Source: Spizellomyces punctatus DAOM BR117 (taxonomy: Eukaryota). From it: a stretch of DNA of 64,000 bases. The notes beneath the pieces are model-generated. The model made no database searches, was not told where the DNA came from, and worked only from the letters and a program-made list of their open reading frames with translations. Positions 51,776 to 64,000 of the stretch are shown here, in pieces. The stretch lies in the NCBI GenBank assembly GCA_000182565.2, contig KQ257462.1; one strand, 5' to 3'. A program made the position numbers and the translations under genes. How positions within the stretch are numbered: position 1 is the first letter of the stretch; each line of letters opens with the position of its first letter.

Positions 51776-52902
51776 TTAACGGTCCGACTCGTCAACAATG
51801 ACGACACTCCTCGCCAAATCCCGTGTCCGTCCATGCTGATCTACAAACGACACGCAGGTATCCACTGTCTCATTCACATGTCCCGTTTCATCGGTCACCG
51901 TCCGCGCTTCAGCCGTCACGGTCAACATAATGTTTTGCCCATCTACACTAGGAGTACACGCACTGACACGTCCTACCCCATTTTGAGCTTCATGGGCCAA
52001 AGATGCTGCCTTGTTGGCGGCCTTTTCACCCATAAGGAGAGCCTTAATGTCCACGTCGAGGAGGGAGCGAAGATGTTCAAGGTCTTGCTCGCGAATGGAG
52101 CCGTGGGGAAGGACTAGGTGTGAGGTTGCTGAAGAGTGTCGGGATGCTTCCAGAGCGTCGAGGACGGCCTTTTCGAGCTCTATGAGATGGGGGTCTGGTG
52201 CATGCGGTGCTAATATGCGCATGGAGTGGCATAATCCCAATAGGTCTATTGTGGACAATTAAGTGAAATGTTCAGCACATGTCAATGGATGAATATACGA
52301 CTTACAATCAGCATTCCATCCACTGGGCCCTTTGGTCTCTGCTATTTGTTTCGCCATCAACTCCAAATCCACTGGTCCCAAAAAACTTTCATTGTCCCCT
52401 GTGGCCACATATACCATGGCATCCTTTACAACCGGCAAATCATTCCCCTCGGCATCCTTCCCACCGTCAGGGTGATACACGTCAGATGTAAATATTTGAT
52501 ACCCATTCTTTTCTCTATGGTCTAAATGCGCCTTGACCGATTCCACTTTTTCGTCGGGTATCTTGTATGCGACACCCCAGCAGCAGTCTGTAGGAGAATG
52601 TTTGTGTGGGTCCGCCATGCCATAAGTGTGGAGCCATTCTTCGTACGGGATAAGTGTCACGACTCGTCCCGGTGAGGAGGGGGTCCCGCGGTGGTCAGTA
52701 CTGCCTTGCCAAAATCGTCGGACGTAGCCGCGCACGTAACCAGGGATGCGCTTTTCGTAGGGAAAGTCTAGACAATGCACATTCCACCACCAAAAACGTC
52801 AGAATGTAAGGAATGGCGGAATGCATAAAGACAAAACCACGAACGATAATAATGTACGGTACCTACTTTCCAGACCAGAGAACCATATCCGAATACCCAC
52901 AT
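51776..52902 (-). CDS. GCG1: ChaC/Gcg1 glutathione-specific gamma-glutamylcyclotransferase with C-terminal extension; 3 exons
   Basis: MWVFGYGSLVWK, RRFWQGSTDHRGTPSSPGRVVTL, WGVAYKI, LDHREKNGY and GPSGWNAD|YL. Confidence 0.93.
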
Positions 52903-55843: not shown

Positions 55844-58701
55844 CTAATTCTCCATAACACGACGCCTCCTTTCCAGATACTCAACCCCACTGATACCATT
55901 TTGCGCCAGCAAATCATCGAGCCTCTTCAGCTCTAGCAGCCTTTCACGCATTTTCAGATACTCTGGACCCGAAATAATATTTTGCGCCAGCAGGGCATCA
56001 AGTTCGGTCATTGACGACGGCGCCGATGCAATGGATGTAGGTGAGGATGGCAAGAACGAAAGCGACTTGGCAGCCGTCGGATTCATCGAATAAGGTGGCA
56101 GATGCGGGGCTGCTAAATTAGTGGGAGGAAGATGCGGCGCTGCCAGAGATGTAGGTACAAAGGTACTTTGGCTGTTCAAATCAAATGTTACTTTGGATCA
56201 TCCAAGAAATGAAGTACCGACAACAGATTCTGGTTCTTACCTGGGAGATACTCCAGGATCATATCCAGTAGACGGGCTCCGAACTCCGGGGCCGGCGTAA
56301 GTATTCGCCCCAGCACTGGAAATGCCAAAGGTTGGAGTTGTGACTGCGCGTCTTGGAATCTGCGCGTGCGGATGTCTAGCGACGGAATTAACGGGAACGC
56401 CAGCAGTGTTTCGCGCGGGAATCCTGTCAGAAACAGGCAACTGCCGCTGCTGTCCTCCATTACTGGGAAGACAGTGTGGCCCTCGAAGCGAGTCGATGCG
56501 CGATGGCCGGGGGAGGTCTTGTTCGAAGCCGTCGATCATATTTGTTCGGTCAATGCCATGAGGTTCAGGCGACGCAGCAAGTCTGAGTCCCATGAGACCT
56601 GAAGTCACCTCGGCGACAGTATCTGTAAGAAGAGGCGATGTGCATTGTGGGGACGTAGGAGTGGTAGGAAGCACATCAGGATTCACAGGTGTACTGCCAG
56701 GACTATCCAAAATACCCAACGGAAATGCCCCCTGTGCTAACGTTGTCAGCGAGTGTCCAAATCCCCAGCCGTCTGGCCAAGATTCACTAGTAGAAAAAGG
56801 AAACCGTGAATATAACAGATTCTAGTCACGGCGACTATCTCCGGCACTAGGTGATAGGAACGTAGTTCTACTCACAGTACTGATATAATGTCTCCTTCCG
56901 AAATACAAAGTTCGTCGGACTGTGCAGGCACATAATCATACATGGCTCTTCCTTGGCGGTAAGTGGGTTCTGGTTGTGCGTGCGCCGCGGTTGGTTGGCG
57001 AGCAAAGCGGCGCACAGTATGCTTTCGAGATGACTGGTCAGGAGGAGCGGACTCGACTGTTTGAGCAGGTTTAGGTGGGGTCGGTATCACGGTTTCTAGA
57101 GAAGATACGGAGCGGGTCTTTCCGAAAATGCTACTTCGTCCGCTTCCCCTTTTTTCGGCTGCAGGCGCAACCATACCACCGTGCTCTCCCGTAGATCCAC
57201 GATCTCGAATTGCTCTCTGTGGATGCATGTCACTACTACCGTTTCTTCCACTCGCAGCAGGTGAATGGGGAATCTGCAATTTGACCGGAAGCCAGATGGT
57301 CGCTGTCTGGGTGGTTTCTCTACCGTCTGCAGGCGTGTAAGCGGGACTGTATGTAATGGAGAATGAAATCTCGTGATTGATTGCAACGCAAGAGCCAGAG
57401 TCGCTGTTCAGGCACATGTGAGTTGCTGTTAAACTGAGGCTTTAGAGCGAGAGCAGAGTGTTTGCTAGTTTACCTGTAGGGTTGGGCGTACGTGTCTGGC
57501 CATGAAAACTCAATGGGGCTGCAAGAAGAATTGTAATCAAGTAAACATGTATCGCCCAGTTGCTCCCGATAGACTGATGTTCCTTCGGATTCTGATTTGC
57601 TGTATAAAATGTACATGAGCAACCGATGATTCATGGAGAAAAGCCAGAAGGCAAGATCAAAGTGTCAGGTTCTTGCTCACCGGAATGTATATACTTCGAA
57701 CCAGGTAGCTTCAACCTTGACAATAGCGATGCTGTCGGCTGGGTACAGCGAAATATTTCCAGGTATTGCGTCGTCCGTGTAATATGCCGGAGAGGGGAAC
57801 CTTGCCACATAGTTGATCGGGCCTAGGTTGGGCCATCAGCATTCCTTTCTTACACGCTATCACACACAAGGTCTTGAACCATCACGCACCATTATCTGCG
57901 CAACCATCCACCTTTTTGTCGATTGGCTCAACCCTGTTGTGGCGTCGTCTAGCAAATACTTCCATGCACTCTACTAGTACTGGGCTAGTACGCTGAGAAC
58001 CTCTGAGACAGGCAAATAGGAGGTGCGTAATGCTGTTTTCTTGGTTTGGAGCGTCGATGTGGACGGTGGGAGGTAGACTCTTGGGAAAGGGAAGGGAAAA
58101 GGCAAATGTTTTGCTAGTGAAAAGTTTTGAGATAAATGCAAAAATGTCACAATACTGTAAACGAGAACGCAGCTTACCTTCCCGGCGCAATGGCTTTCAA
58201 GTCTGCGCAGACGACTGCAACGTTTCTTCCAAGTGGCCTGGCATGGATATCTCCCGCTGCTGGGCTCTCTGGGTCTCGCACGGTTCTGACATCCTTTACG
58301 ATACCCTGCCCGCTAAGCAGCACCACCACGAGCCGCGATGCTGCACAAGGAGAGTTTTGGTTGTTGACGACTGTAATTGTGCCATTGAGTTTTGTCGCTA
58401 GGGGTGGCAAGGACACTATGGATGTGTTTGGGATAAGAGGATGCGGTTCACTGTCCGCGATAGCCAAGTGGAGGGCCAGAGGTCGGGCAGAGCTGGATAT
58501 CGAGGAGGTTGAGGAATAGCGGGAGGAAATGGAAGAGCGGCTAGAAACTGGAGGGACGCTATTTGTGCGGAACGAGTCGGGTCGATGTGTTTGGACAAAC
58601 GAGGAGGAGGAGGAGACGCGTGCTTGATGATCAGTGTTTTCTGCGACCCGCGCAGAGTCCTTTTTCTTTGCAAACGGTTTCAAGGACAGGAAGGAAGGCA
58701 T
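55844..58701 (-). CDS. Arrestin-fold protein with SH3 domain, PY-like motif and tandem SHOCT-like C-terminal repeats, multi-exon
   Basis: Arrestin-like KLNGTITV, FAFSLPFPKSLPPTV...SITHLL and INHEISFSITY...WLPVKL. SH3 RAMYDYVPAQSDELCISEGDIISVL|ESWPDGWGFG...GAFP. LPPY motif. 2x LD.LLAQN.ISG.EYL..R.R. Confidence 0.75.
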
Positions 58702-59416: not shown

Positions 59417-62400
59417 ATGCGTTTCTTTTCTCTAACCCAGTGCACATGCGCCCTCCTTTTGGCCATCACTTTGCTGCCATACCTCAGCTGTGCCCAAGAA
59501 TTCCGCTCCATTGATGGAACAGGCAATAATGCAGACAACAAGGCGTTTGGAAGTGTCAACTCAACATTTGCGAGAACCTTGGGGGGGTATAATGCCAATG
59601 CTTTGACGTCGGGTTTGCCGGACGCCCGCGCCATTTCTAATGCCCTCGCGGGTGTGGTTGCGCCGATAGTGAGTCCGAGAAATATTACAGAGTTGGTAAG
59701 GTCTGATTGATCTCAAAGATATCGTCCATAAATATGATGCTCAATGTGTTCCGTTTAGTTTACATATTGGGGAGAATTCATGGCGACTGGTACGTCGTAA
59801 TGTAAAAGGAGAACCATTCATGTATAGACACTTGAGAAAGAACTTTTGTATGCTCTTAGATCTCTCGCATATCATCCGATCATCAAAACCAACCAACGCG
59901 ACTTTCACTTTACCTGCCAATGGACCATTGCCTCCTGCACCCGCAAACGAATCATTTACGTTTGGTGCAACTGACAGTACCAACAGCGCTCCGCCGGACC
60001 AAATCAACCATGCAACAGCATTCCTGGATGCTTCCAACATTTACGGGACCGATCCTGCCGTGCTGGCCAGCCTCCGGGCTCCTGGTGGCAAACTGGCGCT
60101 TCGGTCTGATCGACTACCGCTTGTCGTAAACGGCACCAACGACATCCGCACGCAGACGGTTCGAATTAATGGGGGCCTCCCATTGGACGTTTTTGGCTTT
60201 GGCCTAGTGAATGGGAATACAAGTCCCATGTTGCAGGTAACATTGGCTGCAATCAGTATCATGAAAGACCAAGGTTGCTAAAGAGTAATTCACTACTAGT
60301 GCCTGTACATTATTTTTATGCGTGAGCATAACCGTTACGTGGACGAGCTTGTACGAAACGGAACAAAGGCGAATGACGAACAATTATTTCAGCTGGGACG
60401 CCAGCATGTCATTGCGCTTATTCAACACATTTCGTACTACGAATACATTCCGGTGCTGTTTGGGGCAAATCTGTTGACGAACCCGGCTTATAACCGCGCT
60501 TTGGATCCCGCGATGGAAGCACTTTTCTCTACCGTCGCATTTCGCTGTATGTGATTGTCAGAGTTGGCTGTTTAATTTAAAGTTTGACAATTAACAACTC
60601 CGTTTTCGTACAGACGGGCACATGGAAGTCACATCTACGCAGATCATGCTCAAAGATGGCAAGCCAACTGAATTCAATCTGGTCGACGTTTTCTACAATA
60701 TCCAACCTGTGCTCCAGCACGGCATCTTCCCATTTTTCGCTGGTACGCTGTGTTTCCCTTGTGACTGTACTTGAATTCGGATTCACACCACAATCCCTAA
60801 GGCATGACCAAACGAAGCCAGCTTATTCCAAAGCTGTACGTTGTCCCCGAACTCCGAAATGTACTCTTTGGCAATCGACCGATGGACCTATTCGCCATTG
60901 ACATTCAACGTTCCCGTGAGTTTGGTTCGCCGTTATATAACGATGCTCGAAGAGCTCTCGGTCTCGCCCCTGCAGTAGACTTTACAGATGTCACCAAGAA
61001 CCAAGCTATTGCATCAACCCTACGAACGCTGTATGCAGGCGATATCAATAAATTGGATGCTATCGTGGGCGGACTTGCGGAGGATCACTCCCCGTCAAAC
61101 AATATTGGCGACTTGTTCACAAAGATTTTGATCTATCAATTTACAAAGACCAGAGATGGGGACCGATTTTGGTTTGAGAATGACGGTGTGTTGACTAAAG
61201 AGCACTTGGACGAAGTTCGGCATACGTATTTCCGGTAAGTAATTTCATGGAGTGTTTGCAAGTACGCACAGCGTGGTGCTTATGATGTGATCCAATCCAT
61301 TTTAGTGATGTGATCGCTCGGAACGTTCCAGAGATACCCCAAGAGACTGCCCAAAAAATGCTTCCACGCAATCTATTTCAAATCACAAATGATGCGAGTC
61401 TGGATGGCGGTATCCCGAACGGATTTGCGTATTCAAAGTCATATCTTGACAATAGATATCGGTTGTCATGGAACATTAACGACCGGGGCGGAAAGTCTGA
61501 AACTATTCGCGGATTGTTGGAGTGCGCCTCTGAAGGCTGGTGTGGCCTAGCGTTTGGGGAGGACATGACGGTCGCTGGTGAGTTCTTGATGCCAGTCGAA
61601 AACGCTCCGCGGAGATACATGTCGTAACAATTTCACCGCAGAATTCATGATTGTTCGTCCGGCGTCGAATGGGTCGCTCATTTTGGAGGAGCGTGATAGT
61701 GGTGGAGGTTTTGTCCGACCGGTTAGTGTTGCAGGCCAAACTTCCATTTTCTATCACATTTTGACCCTTTTGTCGTTAGGTCATGACGACTCGCCCACCC
61801 CTTGTGCAAGTCATTTCCAGCAGTTTCACAGGAGGCATCATGACACTTGAATTCCAAAGGGCGGTTCGTCGCGGTCAAGCTAGTTACAGTGAAGGAGGTG
61901 CTCTGCCAATTCTAGCCGCCTATTCTCCTCAAAAGGCCGTCGCCACGAACAACGACGAGTGGTTCCAGTTTCATCAAACGAACCGACAACGGATTCGATT
62001 AAACTTTGCAACAGGGGAGTCGACTGTCTCGGACAATGTAACACCCAGGCGAAGTGTGCATGGTATAGGAATGGCCCTTATTTGGGGCGTTGTCTTCCCC
62101 TTTGGAGTGTTTTGGTCCAGATATTTTAGGTATGTGCATGTTTGCATACCTGCTTCGCTGTTACGTTTATTCATTTAAAAATATACAGGCATCTTCCTGG
62201 GTGGATGCTCGTTCACATCCTACTTCAAAGCATTGGTTGCATCGCCGTCATTTTCTTGGCAGCTATTCCGCTTATCGATCCGCAAAACATGGGGATTACG
62301 ACCAATGCACCGCATTCGTACATTGGGATTATCCTCCTCGTTTTAGTCATCATTCAGTTGTTATTGGGAGGATTCAATCGACAGGTGAGCGCCAAGGCTA

Positions 62401-64000
62401 ATCAGATCTCGTATAGCAGGTAACGAGCATGTTTACTTATCATTCTCTTGCAGCGTCTTCGATGGGAGAAGCTGCGTGATGCCTCTCACTACATTAGGGT
62501 AGCCCACCATTGGGTCGGGCGTGGTATGATTTTGCTGGGACTTGCAAATATCGGATTTGGGCTTCGGCGCATCTATCCCAACAAAGACCCGTCGGATGGT
62601 ATCTGGTTGGTATACTATGTGGTCTTGGTATTTTGGGCTGCTCTCTTTGCCGCTCTCGAGGTAGGTAGCGCCTTTGTACCTATTAAATCACAACCACGGT
62701 CTCATGGTTCGCTCTATCCTCTACAGGTGTTCTTCCGCTTCAAGGTCCGCGCAACCCGCCCTGATGGACCGCAAATGCCTGTGCCTATTATGCAGCTCGA
62801 TGAGAATGGAAAAGACGGCACTCTTACTGTGATTCCCACTGTAACCCCCGTCATGGCCGCCATGTCTGCGCCGGTGCCGATGAAAAGGGACCCAAAAGAT
62901 CTCGAAAAGCAGCCACTCTTGAGAAGTTTCACGTGGAAGGATATTGACGACGCCGTCATTGGAGGGTATGCTACTGATATTTTTTCCCAGAATTTAGATG
63001 GATGTAGTCACTAACGACTTGCGCATTATTTTCGCAGCGAGCATTTGGTAGTCGGAAATGGACGCTGGGTATATGATATCCGACCCTGGCTCGCCCATCA
63101 CCCTGGTGGCCGACTAATTTTGGATACTGTGAATGGAACCGACATTACGATTGATTTCTTTAATGAATCAGACTTTGATGGTAACCTGGGACTGCAAGCA
63201 ACAAGCGGTAGATCAAACGACCAAGAGAAAGAATTTAGGGTGCTTCCCAATGCATTGGTACGGAACGGTACACCAAACGGGGATCATGAAGCATATGACG
63301 AAAGTGACTCGGTCATCAAAGTGAATCCTTTATTGCACAAACCATTTACGACATCTGGACCTATCGTTCACCATGAACTTTCTGTGGAAACCTTGAGAAC
63401 GAACAGCGAGGAAAAATCTGAAGAAGAGAGCGAACATTGGATTCCGCCGCCGGATATCAAAGCAGATGAATGGAAGGCAGTTCGAAGAGCTCGATGGACG
63501 CATGCCCACAGCAAATACGCCGCTGAAAAGCTCATTGGATTCATTATCGGCGAGATTTCATGCCCAAAAGTTCCATCAAAGTTTTATGATTCGGCGGATG
63601 GGTCACGATCTTTTGATCCATACGAGTACCGTCGATATGCAATGGTCCATAAACAGCTAGTGACTTCCAAATCAGCCAAACGTGCAGTTTACCGTGTCAA
63701 ATTCGCGCTGTTATATCCTTTCCAAGGGTTGCGTGAGAATGAGCCAACAAGTTTTCTTCCGGGGCAGTGCGTAGAAATTGCCGATCGCATCCAAGGACAG
63801 ATTGTCACACGGTTTTATACGCCTGTCTCTGGCAGTCCTAGTTGCTTTGAAGTGTTGATCAAAGTCTATCCGGAAGGATTGATGGGACAGCATATCCACA
63901 AGCGCAAACCAGGCGACCGGCAGCTTAAGGTTCGTGGTCCATTTGCCGAGCCTTTGATCAACCCTCACCCGCCATTGAGAGGATTGCATGCGGGATGCTG
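59417..64000 (+). CDS. Multidomain membrane oxidoreductase: signal peptide + peroxidase-cyclooxygenase-type heme domain + DOMON + cytochrome b561 + cytochrome b5 + FAD-binding (b5-reductase-like) domain; at least 12 exons, runs off the window end
   Basis: Exons ~59417-59695, 59759-59789, 59860-60236, 60300-60546, 60614-60742, 60802-61234, 61306-61577, 61642-61721, 61780-62129, 62189-62384, 62454-62660, 62727-62965 and 63038->64000 join in frame. Motifs: FRSIDGTGNN, TAFLDASNIYG, REHNR, AFRYGH, DIQRSRE, RDGDRFWFEN; GWCGLAFGEDM...QFH; four b561 His; VYDI..WLAHHPGG; RFYTP, KVYPEGLMG, VRGP. Confidence 0.9.

Follow-up and report, generated by a model that had tools for sequence, protein, structure and literature searches.

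A chytrid gene for a candidate transmembrane electron chain that joins a peroxidase fold, a CYBDOM-type membrane module and a cytochrome b5 reductase in one polypeptide

Can a single polypeptide carry electrons from cytosolic pyridine nucleotides across the plasma membrane to a haem of the peroxidase fold on the cell surface? The question is raised by a gene that begins at position 59,417 of a 64,000-nucleotide stretch of contig KQ257462.1 from the chytrid Spizellomyces punctatus DAOM BR117 (this whole stretch is referred to as the window, and all positions are positions in it). A previous reading of the letters alone, hereafter the sequence-only reading, had proposed that the coding pieces at this locus splice into one protein in which a signal peptide, an animal-type haem peroxidase fold, a DOMON domain, a cytochrome b561 core, a cytochrome b5 and a flavin adenine dinucleotide (FAD) domain follow one another. 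Searches against Pfam, the PDB and, by structure, with Foldseek recover these domains in that order, and we conclude that the gene is real, conserved and expressed, and that its architecture is unusual and uncharacterised. We consider it highly probable that its product forms a transmembrane chain driven by NAD(P)H that reaches at least the DOMON haem, and on balance probable that this chain is a wire within one polypeptide that runs from NAD(P)H to a reductive end station in the peroxidase fold, most likely reducing O2. A search of the full-text literature, with subscription journals and supplements outside its reach, returned no published description of the fusion, which agrees with the statement of the sequence-only reading that it knew of no functional characterisation of this architecture. 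That reading mentioned neither the loss of the distal peroxidase residues, the loop that splits b5, the SH3 insertion in the NAD domain nor the relatives without a peroxidase fold, all of which are described below.

A database search with the last open frame of the locus returned a 1480-aa protein, P0001, that is the window's own product at 100% identity. Threaded through the DNA, P0001 resolves into 13 exons and 12 introns, all of the form GT..AG and 58-72 nt long, and the exons give its residues 1-1267 letter for letter. The window ends inside exon 13, and the last 213 residues (an NAD domain containing an SH3 domain) are taken from the database record alone. The stop-to-stop frames on the plus strand encode recognisable protein pieces from 59417 on: among single-exon translations, An_peroxidase was found by Pfam in four of the five large peroxidase exons (expectation values, E, of 1e-5 to 4e-38), and the last open frame (63015-63998) matched both Cyt-b5 (E 1.6e-6) and FAD_binding_6 (E 1.5e-9). 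The exact threading bears out the earlier proposal of one gene spliced in one frame through GT-AG introns, while the count of about eight fragments that came with it proves too low, one of the 13 exons being a micro-exon of 31 nt. The motifs on which that proposal was built stand where it had placed them: GEDM (Met586) at 61553 and QFH (His681) at 61960 in the extracellular part; SVHG at 62053, LVHI at 62208, PHSY at 62310 and AHHW at 62502 in b561; and HPGG at 63099, RFYTP at 63810 and GLMG at 63876 in the cytosolic part.

Removal of introns is also visible in spliced contigs from four public runs of two studies, none of them on record as RNA. Seven of the 12 introns (1, 3, 4, 5, 9, 10 and 12) are absent from such contigs, with borders exactly as predicted; introns 2, 6, 7, 8 and 11 have no bridging contig, and the uncovered parts include 61024-61898 and 62519-62944. 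At the micro-exon, the 5' intron (intron 1) is spliced out in a contig and the 3' intron (intron 2) is without contig cover. Independently of transcripts, the domain boundaries also speak for one gene. Exon 7, which encodes the last helix of the peroxidase fold together with the first DOMON strands, has no stop codon and no promoter room between the peroxidase fold and DOMON, and exon 9 codes for the DOMON residue His681 plus the first transmembrane (TM) helix of b561 (TM1). Exon 12 holds the end of helix 5, a linker and the start of b5; in a contig from run X4 it is spliced to exon 13, within which b5 runs on into the FAD domain without interruption. Because the peroxidase/DOMON and DOMON/b561 boundaries fall inside single exons (7 and 9), we read the locus as one gene, not two. 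At two positions of exon 6, in the peroxidase part, contigs of runs X1 and X2 differ from the window by C>T (60854 and 60888), probably through strain or allele variation.

The outer domain is a clear member of the animal haem peroxidase fold. An_peroxidase (PF03098) matches P0001 over profile positions 1-523 of 530 (E 6.6e-103, 345.5 bits against a cut-off of 25), and a phmmer search of the PDB returned 8s6c (E 6.9e-62) and Dictyostelium peroxinectin A (6erc, E 2e-54), with lactoperoxidases (about 1e-47), myeloperoxidase and DUOX1 (6wxr, E 1.1e-40) as further matches. The haem pocket was aligned with three reference peroxidases (8s6c, 6erc and 2e9e), and we assume for its residues the roles that follow from myeloperoxidase numbering. 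On the distal side, the motif WGQFxDHD reads WGEFMATD in P0001, with Glu99, Ala102 and Thr103 in the places of Gln, the ester-forming Asp and the distal His, and GDxRxNE reads GLVNGNT, in which Asn221 replaces the distal Arg and Thr224 replaces the ester-forming Glu. Here and below, counts are rows with the residue over rows covering the site among 51 fused sequences, aligned with MAFFT in a faster mode that gives a less refined result than our 8-sequence alignment. The distal His, which a competent peroxidase should retain, is present in just 1/44 rows, and in Glomeromycota its position is mostly occupied by Phe or Tyr. Position 221 is N, A, G, K or V in all 12 rows of the SH3 type, and it is for this clade only that loss of the distal Arg appears secure from the alignment. 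The single exception at the distal His is P0036 (1637 aa, WGEFFIHD), the sole fused member of the 44 with the canonical residue, which may represent a form still able to do peroxidase chemistry.

The proximal side of the same pocket is kept. His314, the proximal ligand, is found in 46/46 rows, Arg311 in 46/47, Arg391 in 42/47 and Asp388 in 48/48, and Asp104 of the calcium site in 44/44. Arg311 and Arg391 presumably bind the haem propionates, and Asp388 stands where the three reference peroxidases have an Asn that, we assume, hydrogen-bonds their proximal His. Tyr312, whose codon is split by an intron (about 60546/60614), is Tyr in 46/47 rows, where the references have Phe or Val, and could serve as a redox-active relay. 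Since the proximal side is intact and the distal His and Arg are gone, the domain seems made to hold a five-coordinate haem and not to split H2O2 in the classical manner; judged by these residues, it is not a competent classical peroxidase. Wall cross-linking by peroxidation, one of the functions offered by the sequence-only reading, is unlikely, given that the distal His survives in one of 44 rows and that P0001 has other residues in place of the distal Arg and of the two ester-forming acids. In the cyclooxygenase-type branch of the superfamily, a catalytic Tyr stands three residues before the proximal His (Tyr-x-x-His). A cyclooxygenase, linoleate diol synthase or alpha-dioxygenase reading was tried and rejected: Tyr312 lies two, not three, residues before His314, the distal His of the COX/Ppo-type dioxygenases is missing, and matches to cyclooxygenases are weak (E about 2e-8).

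The part of P0001 that follows is of the CYBDOM kind. An AlphaFold2 model of residues 519-889, built from 46 sequences with a mean predicted local distance difference test score (pLDDT) of 90.7, consists of a beta sandwich (model residues 23-182) and then five long helices. Among the Foldseek matches, the first ten places go to the cytochrome domains of cellobiose dehydrogenase (CDH) and pyranose dehydrogenase and to the DOMON domain of dopamine beta-hydroxylase (E 2e-5 to 1.5e-4, probability 1.00), and the two DOMON haem ligands are present in 50/50 (Met586) and 44/45 (His681) fused rows. The b561 structures 4o7g and 4o6y are matched with probability 1.00 (TM-scores of 0.57 and 0.53, E 0.03), and four conserved His residues stand on four consecutive helices (His710 43/43, His742 45/46, His775 45/46 and His816 36/36). 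By their positions, His710 and His775 would hold the outer b561 haem, and His742 and His816 the inner one. The layout of the classical, ascorbate-dependent b561, with six helices and both termini in the cytosol, is not found in the model, which has five helices, as in the CYBDOM subtype. Because this number is odd, DOMON is placed outside and b5 inside, and the basic residues agree: Lys and Arg cluster at the cytosolic helix ends and after TM5, and the outer loops hold 0-1. The predicted topology, with the N-terminus out and the C-terminus in, sets the peroxidase and reductase domains on opposite sides of the membrane, as the sequence-only reading had supposed. A complex prediction of the peroxidase fold (29-510) with DOMON-b561 (536-876) and four haems, run without alignments, gave a score of 0.01 and says nothing either way.

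On the cytosolic side, cytochrome b5 is probably split by a long loop. Pfam finds Cyt-b5 in P0001 at 25.8 bits against a cut-off of 23.7 and over profile positions 21-52 of 74 only, which corresponds to a first half that reads HPGG...DITIDFFNESDFDG before the variable loop begins. An insert stands at the same place in each of 45 relatives aligned for this purpose, with a length of 44-104 aa, and its equivalent has low pLDDT in a model of the relative P0089. Beyond it, the conserved WTHAHSKYAAEKLIGFIIGEI resembles, to our eye, the second-His helix of microsomal b5. All three His residues are invariant in the fused rows (His968 49/49, His1102 50/50 and His1104 50/50). In line with a fold assembled from two halves, the P0089 model superimposes on the b5 structure 7bwh with Z 8.2 and a root-mean-square deviation of 2.3 over 64 residues, spanning model range 1-157 with both halves aligned; for 2m33, Z is 7.9 (model range 1-162), and for the b5 domain of sulfite oxidase it is 8.0. 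A first Foldseek search with the P0089 model had no b5 among the matches listed (ranks 1-48, with gaps), and b5 structures turned up only in a wider search of this model, at ranks 47-50.

The C-terminal part is a flavin reductase of the b5-reductase type. FAD_binding_6 scores 35.7 bits on P0001 (cut-off 21.1), PDB sequence matches of the FAD/NAD part include the b5 reductase 2eix (E 1.4e-8) and 7rom, and the top 16 Foldseek rows for the P0089 model are all NADH-cytochrome b5 reductases. Flavin and NAD sites are kept in the fused rows (Arg1205 49/49, Tyr1207 49/49 and the NAD-site Gly1277 46/47). Besides RFYTP (1205-1209), the P0001 record holds GGAGISP (1276-1282) and VICGP (1440-1444), the latter two beyond the window, where the sequence-only reading had expected an NAD-binding motif past 64000. 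By family, NADH would be a more likely donor than NADPH. Neither Ferric_reduct nor FAD_binding_8 was found at E <= 0.01 in the 12 proteins scanned. The alignment places the SH3 domain within the NAD domain, also beyond the window, between its first strand-helix (GGAGISP...LQFVKEYLLP) and its second strand; residues 1300-1357 match the SH3 domain of vinexin (2ct3) at E 4.5e-6, and the insertion probably ties the activity of the protein, or its location, to a partner rich in proline.

How widely is this combination kept? A scan of 1.84 billion representative sequences gave 166 clusters at E <= 1e-30. The full architecture is present in eight named chytrid proteins among 12 search matches (genera Phlyctochytrium, Geranomyces, Borealophlyctis, Rhizophlyctis, Thoreauomyces and Quaeritorhiza) and in 35 proteins of Glomeromycota (Acaulospora, Gigaspora, Entrophospora, Paraglomus, Rhizophagus, Cetraspora and others), and named relatives are limited to these two groups. 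Glomeromycota have many paralogues per species, with Entrophospora sp. SA101 contributing 11 of the 35 rows; among six members scanned, none had an SH3 match at E <= 1e-4 and five had NAD_binding_1. Database names for these relatives are 'heme peroxidase' or 'hypothetical protein' only, and PMC10629195 notes no more than that animal-type haem peroxidases occur in Mucoromycota. In the ESM Atlas, a cluster of 179 members carries An_peroxidase in 100%, Cyt-b5 in 97% and DOMON in 88%. By alignment, all the cofactor sites are strongly constrained in both fungal phyla, and the ligand sets of the route claimed by the sequence-only reading, from FAD through b5, the two b561 haems and DOMON to the peroxidase fold, are nearly invariant in the 51 fused relatives. 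That all these ligand sets are constrained together across two phyla is our main argument that the parts work together.

A shorter form of about 1000 aa, with DOMON, b561, b5, FAD, SH3 and NAD parts and no peroxidase fold, is common. Across 48 relatives of this type, Cyt-b5 was found in 46, FAD_binding_6 in 41, SH3_9 in 37, b561 in 30, DOMON in 22 and An_peroxidase in one. In an unrooted FastTree phylogeny of the core region (46 sequences, 757 columns, with 24 core-only rows picked by hand from the 48), the peroxidase-less proteins form one clan (support 0.991) that adjoins the fused pair P0075/P0039 (0.993); on this tree either a single gain or a single loss of the peroxidase domain is enough. 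A further ESM Atlas cluster of core proteins (54 members, about 995 aa) has Cyt-b5 in 85%, DOMON in 50% and FAD_binding_6 in 41%, and is labelled 'Eukaryota, commonest Ciliophora'. We treat the label as a lead only: if true, the core may reach beyond fungi, and mixed samples are also possible.

From these ligand sets, an electron route can be proposed. The cytosolic FAD/NAD domain would accept hydride from NAD(P)H, and its FAD would hand single electrons to the fused cytochrome b5, which in turn would dock at the basic cytosolic face of b561, in the place that ascorbate takes in plant CYBDOMs. The b5 would reduce the inner b561 haem, the electron would cross the membrane to the outer b561 haem and pass to the extracellular Met/His haem of DOMON, and from there it would reach the His-ligated haem of the N-terminal peroxidase fold as its end station, for a total of FAD and five haems in one polypeptide. 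At the cell surface, this outer haem would bind and reduce O2, releasing superoxide or H2O2 or activating oxygen. The sequence and the model give the structure of the gene, the identity of its domains, a number of helices that fits the topology and the conservation of each ligand set; that the haem sites are filled, that electrons run outward without a break, and which donor and which final reaction are involved, we infer from these. That the peroxidase-fold haem is the end point of the chain seems to us reasonably probable, and we read the domain as a reductive end station and not as a classical peroxidase because its proximal side (His314, Asp388, Arg311 and Arg391) is kept and its distal His and Arg are lost. 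O2 as the acceptor is a tentative assignment, and reductive O2 chemistry is favoured because the pocket is without the His/Arg pair, keeps a strong proximal His-Asp pair and would receive single electrons.

Several observations weigh against this interpretation. In P0001 itself, three domains fall below their Pfam cut-offs, namely DOMON (26.7 against 32.7), b561 (20.8 against 23) and SH3_1 (19.5 against 22.9); aligned relatives exceed the DOMON cut-off (P0012 41.6 and P0141 54.4), and scores reach 46.4 bits for b561 (P0075) and 33.5 bits for SH3 (P0002), so that the assignment of these domains in P0001 draws on such relatives and on the fold. The structural match to b5 is middling, with Z about 8, and comes from the relative P0089, not from P0001. 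In many rows of Glomeromycota an Arg stands one place beside the canonical register of the distal Arg, and no contig spanning all domains is present among the short contigs of the four runs. The peroxidase-less paralogues indicate that the core works, whatever its job, without the outer domain, and we infer haem and FAD binding from the ligands only. Finally, midpoint potentials are usually positive for the haems of b561 and DOMON cytochromes and usually negative for the Fe3+/Fe2+ couples of peroxidase-type haems; because of such potentials, reduction of the last haem and formation of superoxide are possibly uphill, unless ligand binding pulls the reaction forward.

In one alternative, the outer domain would be a surface peroxide reductase, in which its haem reacts with H2O2 or organic hydroperoxides and the chain reduces the high-valent haem, as cytochrome c does for cytochrome c peroxidase; cytosolic NAD(P)H would then be spent on removing peroxide outside the cell. 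Reduction of Compound I/II by b-type cytochromes is strongly downhill. The invariant Asp388, a partner of the proximal His where the three references have Asn, fits such a role, the His-Asp pair being known to stabilise ferryl states in plant and yeast peroxidases. Within the SH3-type rows there are also candidates for the missing distal groups. Glu99 is present in 11/12 and could act as an acid-base catalyst, as a Glu does in chloroperoxidase, and His107, four residues downstream of the distal site, is present in 10/12. In Glomeromycota, however, 32 rows cover position 99, of which 20 have Gln and five have Glu, and position 107 is mostly a gap; because neither residue is conserved there, no acid-base substitute is common to the whole family. 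With the distal His confined to one of 44 rows and the Arg absent from the SH3-type clade, we regard a peroxide reductase as improbable.

Alternatively, the DOMON haem could be the true exit of a ferric, cupric or partner-enzyme reductase, with the peroxidase fold as a cap that takes no part in redox chemistry and binds substrate, adheres or stabilises; such a role has been reported for human DUOX, whose peroxidase-homology domain is haem-poor. The wide spread of the peroxidase-less form and the loss of the distal catalytic residues speak for such a cap, and the plant CYBDOM protein HYP1 (PMC10784544) reduces ferric and cupric substrates with DOMON as its sole outer module. Two phyla have kept the proximal His (46/46), the Asp that pairs with it (48/48) and two Arg residues that presumably bind the propionates (46/47 and 42/47), which is hard to explain if the fold is haem-free, and we put this alternative at the same low probability as the peroxide reductase. 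Electron acceptors other than O2 or peroxide form a further alternative to O2 at the end of the chain. We think it very improbable that gene prediction falsely fused a secreted peroxidase gene with a CYBDOM-b5-reductase gene: chytrid gene models are mostly automatic, all domains are covered by no single contig and some relatives are clearly over-merged (P0003, P0065 and P0070), yet the peroxidase end and the DOMON start share exon 61306-61577 with no stop and no promoter space, the frame is unbroken across 12 short canonical introns, and the identical fusion recurs in many species of two phyla. As for the over-merged relatives, P0003 (1433 aa) has two FAD_binding_6 and two SH3 stretches and is perhaps a tandem pair of core genes, P0065 (1890 aa) has an N-terminal serine carboxypeptidase before the core, and P0070 (2637 aa) has a DFP domain before the core.

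A transmembrane wire with a reductive outer end station has partial counterparts in several known systems. CYBDOM proteins, among them Arabidopsis HYP1/CRR and animal FRRS1/SDR2, resemble P0001 in having a DOMON outside the membrane, with a haem ligated by Met and His, and behind it a b561 of five helices that holds two pairs of His. According to PMC10784544, HYP1 combines DOMON with a five-helix b561 (modelled), has Met90/His174 and two His pairs, and carries electrons outward from cytosolic ascorbate; its b561 His spacings are 34, 33 and 36 residues, compared with 32, 33 and 41 in P0001. Whereas the plant proteins described there use free cytosolic ascorbate, P0001 has a fused b5 and b5 reductase inside and a peroxidase fold outside. 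The middle part of P0001 is of the CYBDOM kind and its cytosolic part of the b5 plus b5-reductase kind.

With DUOX1/2, P0001 shares the layout: a peroxidase-type domain at the N-terminus stands outside the cell, two haems lead through the membrane, and a flavin domain of the ferredoxin-reductase type at the C-terminus is fed by cytosolic pyridine nucleotide, and the catalytic residues of the peroxidase domain are degenerate in human DUOX as well. The parts differ. The membrane part of P0001 is b561, not a ferric-reductase domain, DOMON and b5 are additional, the flavin domain is of the b5-reductase type, and an SH3 domain stands in the stead of the EF-hands of DUOX. The sequence-only reading had called the protein a DUOX analogue built from different parts; this holds as an analogy and not as membership, given that no ferric-reductase domain was found at E <= 0.01 in the 12 proteins scanned, and by domain content the likeness is convergent and P0001 is not a member of the NOX/DUOX family.

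Further likenesses concern single modules. The CDH-type cytochrome accepts electrons from a flavin domain and delivers them to a metalloenzyme outside the protein, lytic polysaccharide monooxygenase (LPMO). The cytochromes of CDH and pyranose dehydrogenase (4qi7, 4qi3, 1d7b and 6jt6) are the best structural matches of the P0001 DOMON, with a b-type cytochrome of Met/His ligation, and they differ in belonging to soluble, secreted enzymes with a GMC flavin domain and without membrane passage. NCB5OR (CYB5R4, 6mv2; Z 12.0 against the P0089 model) and the haem-FAD part of nitrate reductase (1cnf and 5yly, both among the Foldseek matches) likewise carry b5 N-terminal to a b5-reductase-type domain, but are soluble, have a b5 without the 44-104 aa loop and have no SH3 in the NAD domain. 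The closest solved sequences of the outer domain, 8s6c and peroxinectin A (6erc), align over nearly its full length; unlike P0001 with its Thr103 and Asp388, both keep the distal His and have Asn at the latter site, and 8s6c keeps the Arg and Glu of GDxRxNE where P0001 has Asn221 and Thr224. A precedent for the SH3 insertion comes from Naegleria gruberi, whose NOX homologues (PMC3591440) hold an SH3 inside the NADPH-binding domain that the authors consider a docking site for a proline-rich regulator. As in P0001, the SH3 interrupts the nucleotide-binding domain of a transmembrane electron-transport enzyme, there with a NOX dehydrogenase and a ferric-reductase domain and here with a b5-reductase type and b561. 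The same source, PMC3591440, reports that the ferric-reductase superfamily independently recruited DOMON, a peroxidase-like domain and SH3, which by analogy makes a striking parallel to the accessory domains of the P0001 family.

Electrons are known to leave the cytosol across the plasma membrane by NOX, DUOX and FRE proteins (ferric-reductase domain, NADPH), by b561/CYBDOM proteins (ascorbate) and, in another arrangement, through secreted flavocytochromes. The family described here ties the b561/CYBDOM route straight to pyridine nucleotides through the fused b5 and b5 reductase, and in one of its branches a haem in a peroxidase fold is set at the outer end of the chain. Should the chain be active, no eukaryotic plasma-membrane protein would, to our knowledge, have a longer haem wire within one polypeptide, and the family would be a second, independent invention of the DUOX layout; it would also give fungi, which as far as we know are without plant-type ascorbate, a means to run a CYBDOM. 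As judged by its ligands, the mechanism up to the DOMON haem appears well grounded, and the main interest lies in the role of the outer domain. The loss of the distal His beside a fully kept proximal side amounts to a natural experiment in which a peroxidase fold is fed electrons and not peroxide. The restriction of named matches to chytrids and Glomeromycota and the gain of copies in arbuscular mycorrhizal fungi offer testable links to iron and copper reduction at the surface, reactive oxygen species signalling and the chemistry of walls and interfaces. At its boldest, and we think this unlikely as a whole, the reading would be that early-diverging fungi built, independently of NOX/DUOX, a self-sufficient O2-activating enzyme of six cofactors with an outer His-Asp haem fed by NAD(P)H, an extracellular H2O2 synthase or oxygenase with a P450-like electron supply, controlled through SH3 in chytrids. 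Arbuscular mycorrhizal fungi, whose genomes hold nine or more copies, could use it to shape the redox chemistry of the symbiotic interface.

Table 1. Positions in the window of the gene, its exons and the domains and sites of its product (residue numbers refer to P0001).
Feature	Position	Strand	Residues or content	Basis or remark
Gene, coding part in window	59417..64000	+	residues 1-1267 of 1480	continues past window end
Exons 1-5	59417-59695, 59759-59789, 59860-60236, 60300-60546, 60614-60742	+		P0001 threading
Exons 6-10	60802-61234, 61306-61577, 61642-61721, 61780-62129, 62189-62384	+		P0001 threading
Exons 11-13	62454-62660, 62727-62965, 63038-64000	+		P0001 threading
Probable signal peptide	59417..59494	+	residues 1-26	hydrophobic core CALLLAITLL, small residues before Gln27; by eye
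Animal-haem-peroxidase fold	59501..61339	+	residues 29-510; exons 1-7	Pfam An_peroxidase
Micro-exon 2, 31 nt	59759..59789	+	FTYWGEFMAT, distal-helix motif	Thr103 at distal-His place, Glu99 at Gln place
Proximal haem ligand, His314 codon	60619..60621	+	AFRYGH	aligned with GH of reference peroxidases
Exon 7	61306..61577	+	peroxidase-fold end (residues 500-510) and first DOMON strands including Met586	
DOMON / CDH-type cytochrome	61430..62031	+	residues 541-700, ligands Met586 and His681	AlphaFold2 model, Foldseek
b561 core, five TM helices	62044..62747	+	residues 705-874	model, Foldseek, His conservation
b5, first half	62928..63182	+	residues ~935-995, HPGG ligand His968; intron 12 inside	Pfam Cyt-b5
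Variable acidic loop inside b5 fold	63183..63461	+	~93 aa	alignment of relatives
b5, second half	63462..63560	+	residues ~1089-1121, WTHAHSKYAAEKLIGFIIGEI, presumed second ligand His1104	conservation
FAD-binding barrel, b5-reductase type	63615..64000	+	from residue ~1140, RFYTP 63810	cut by window end

Upstream of this gene, the opposite strand carries a frame at 56872-57441 (-) with an SH3_1 match (E 2.3e-5) at its C-terminal end (about 56875-56950), where tblastn also weakly echoes the SH3 of P0001. Pfam matched none of the remaining large frames between 53976 and 58806. Further upstream, the frame at 52259-52798 (-) encodes a ChaC-like protein of the gamma-glutamylcyclotransferase family (Pfam E 1.7e-43).

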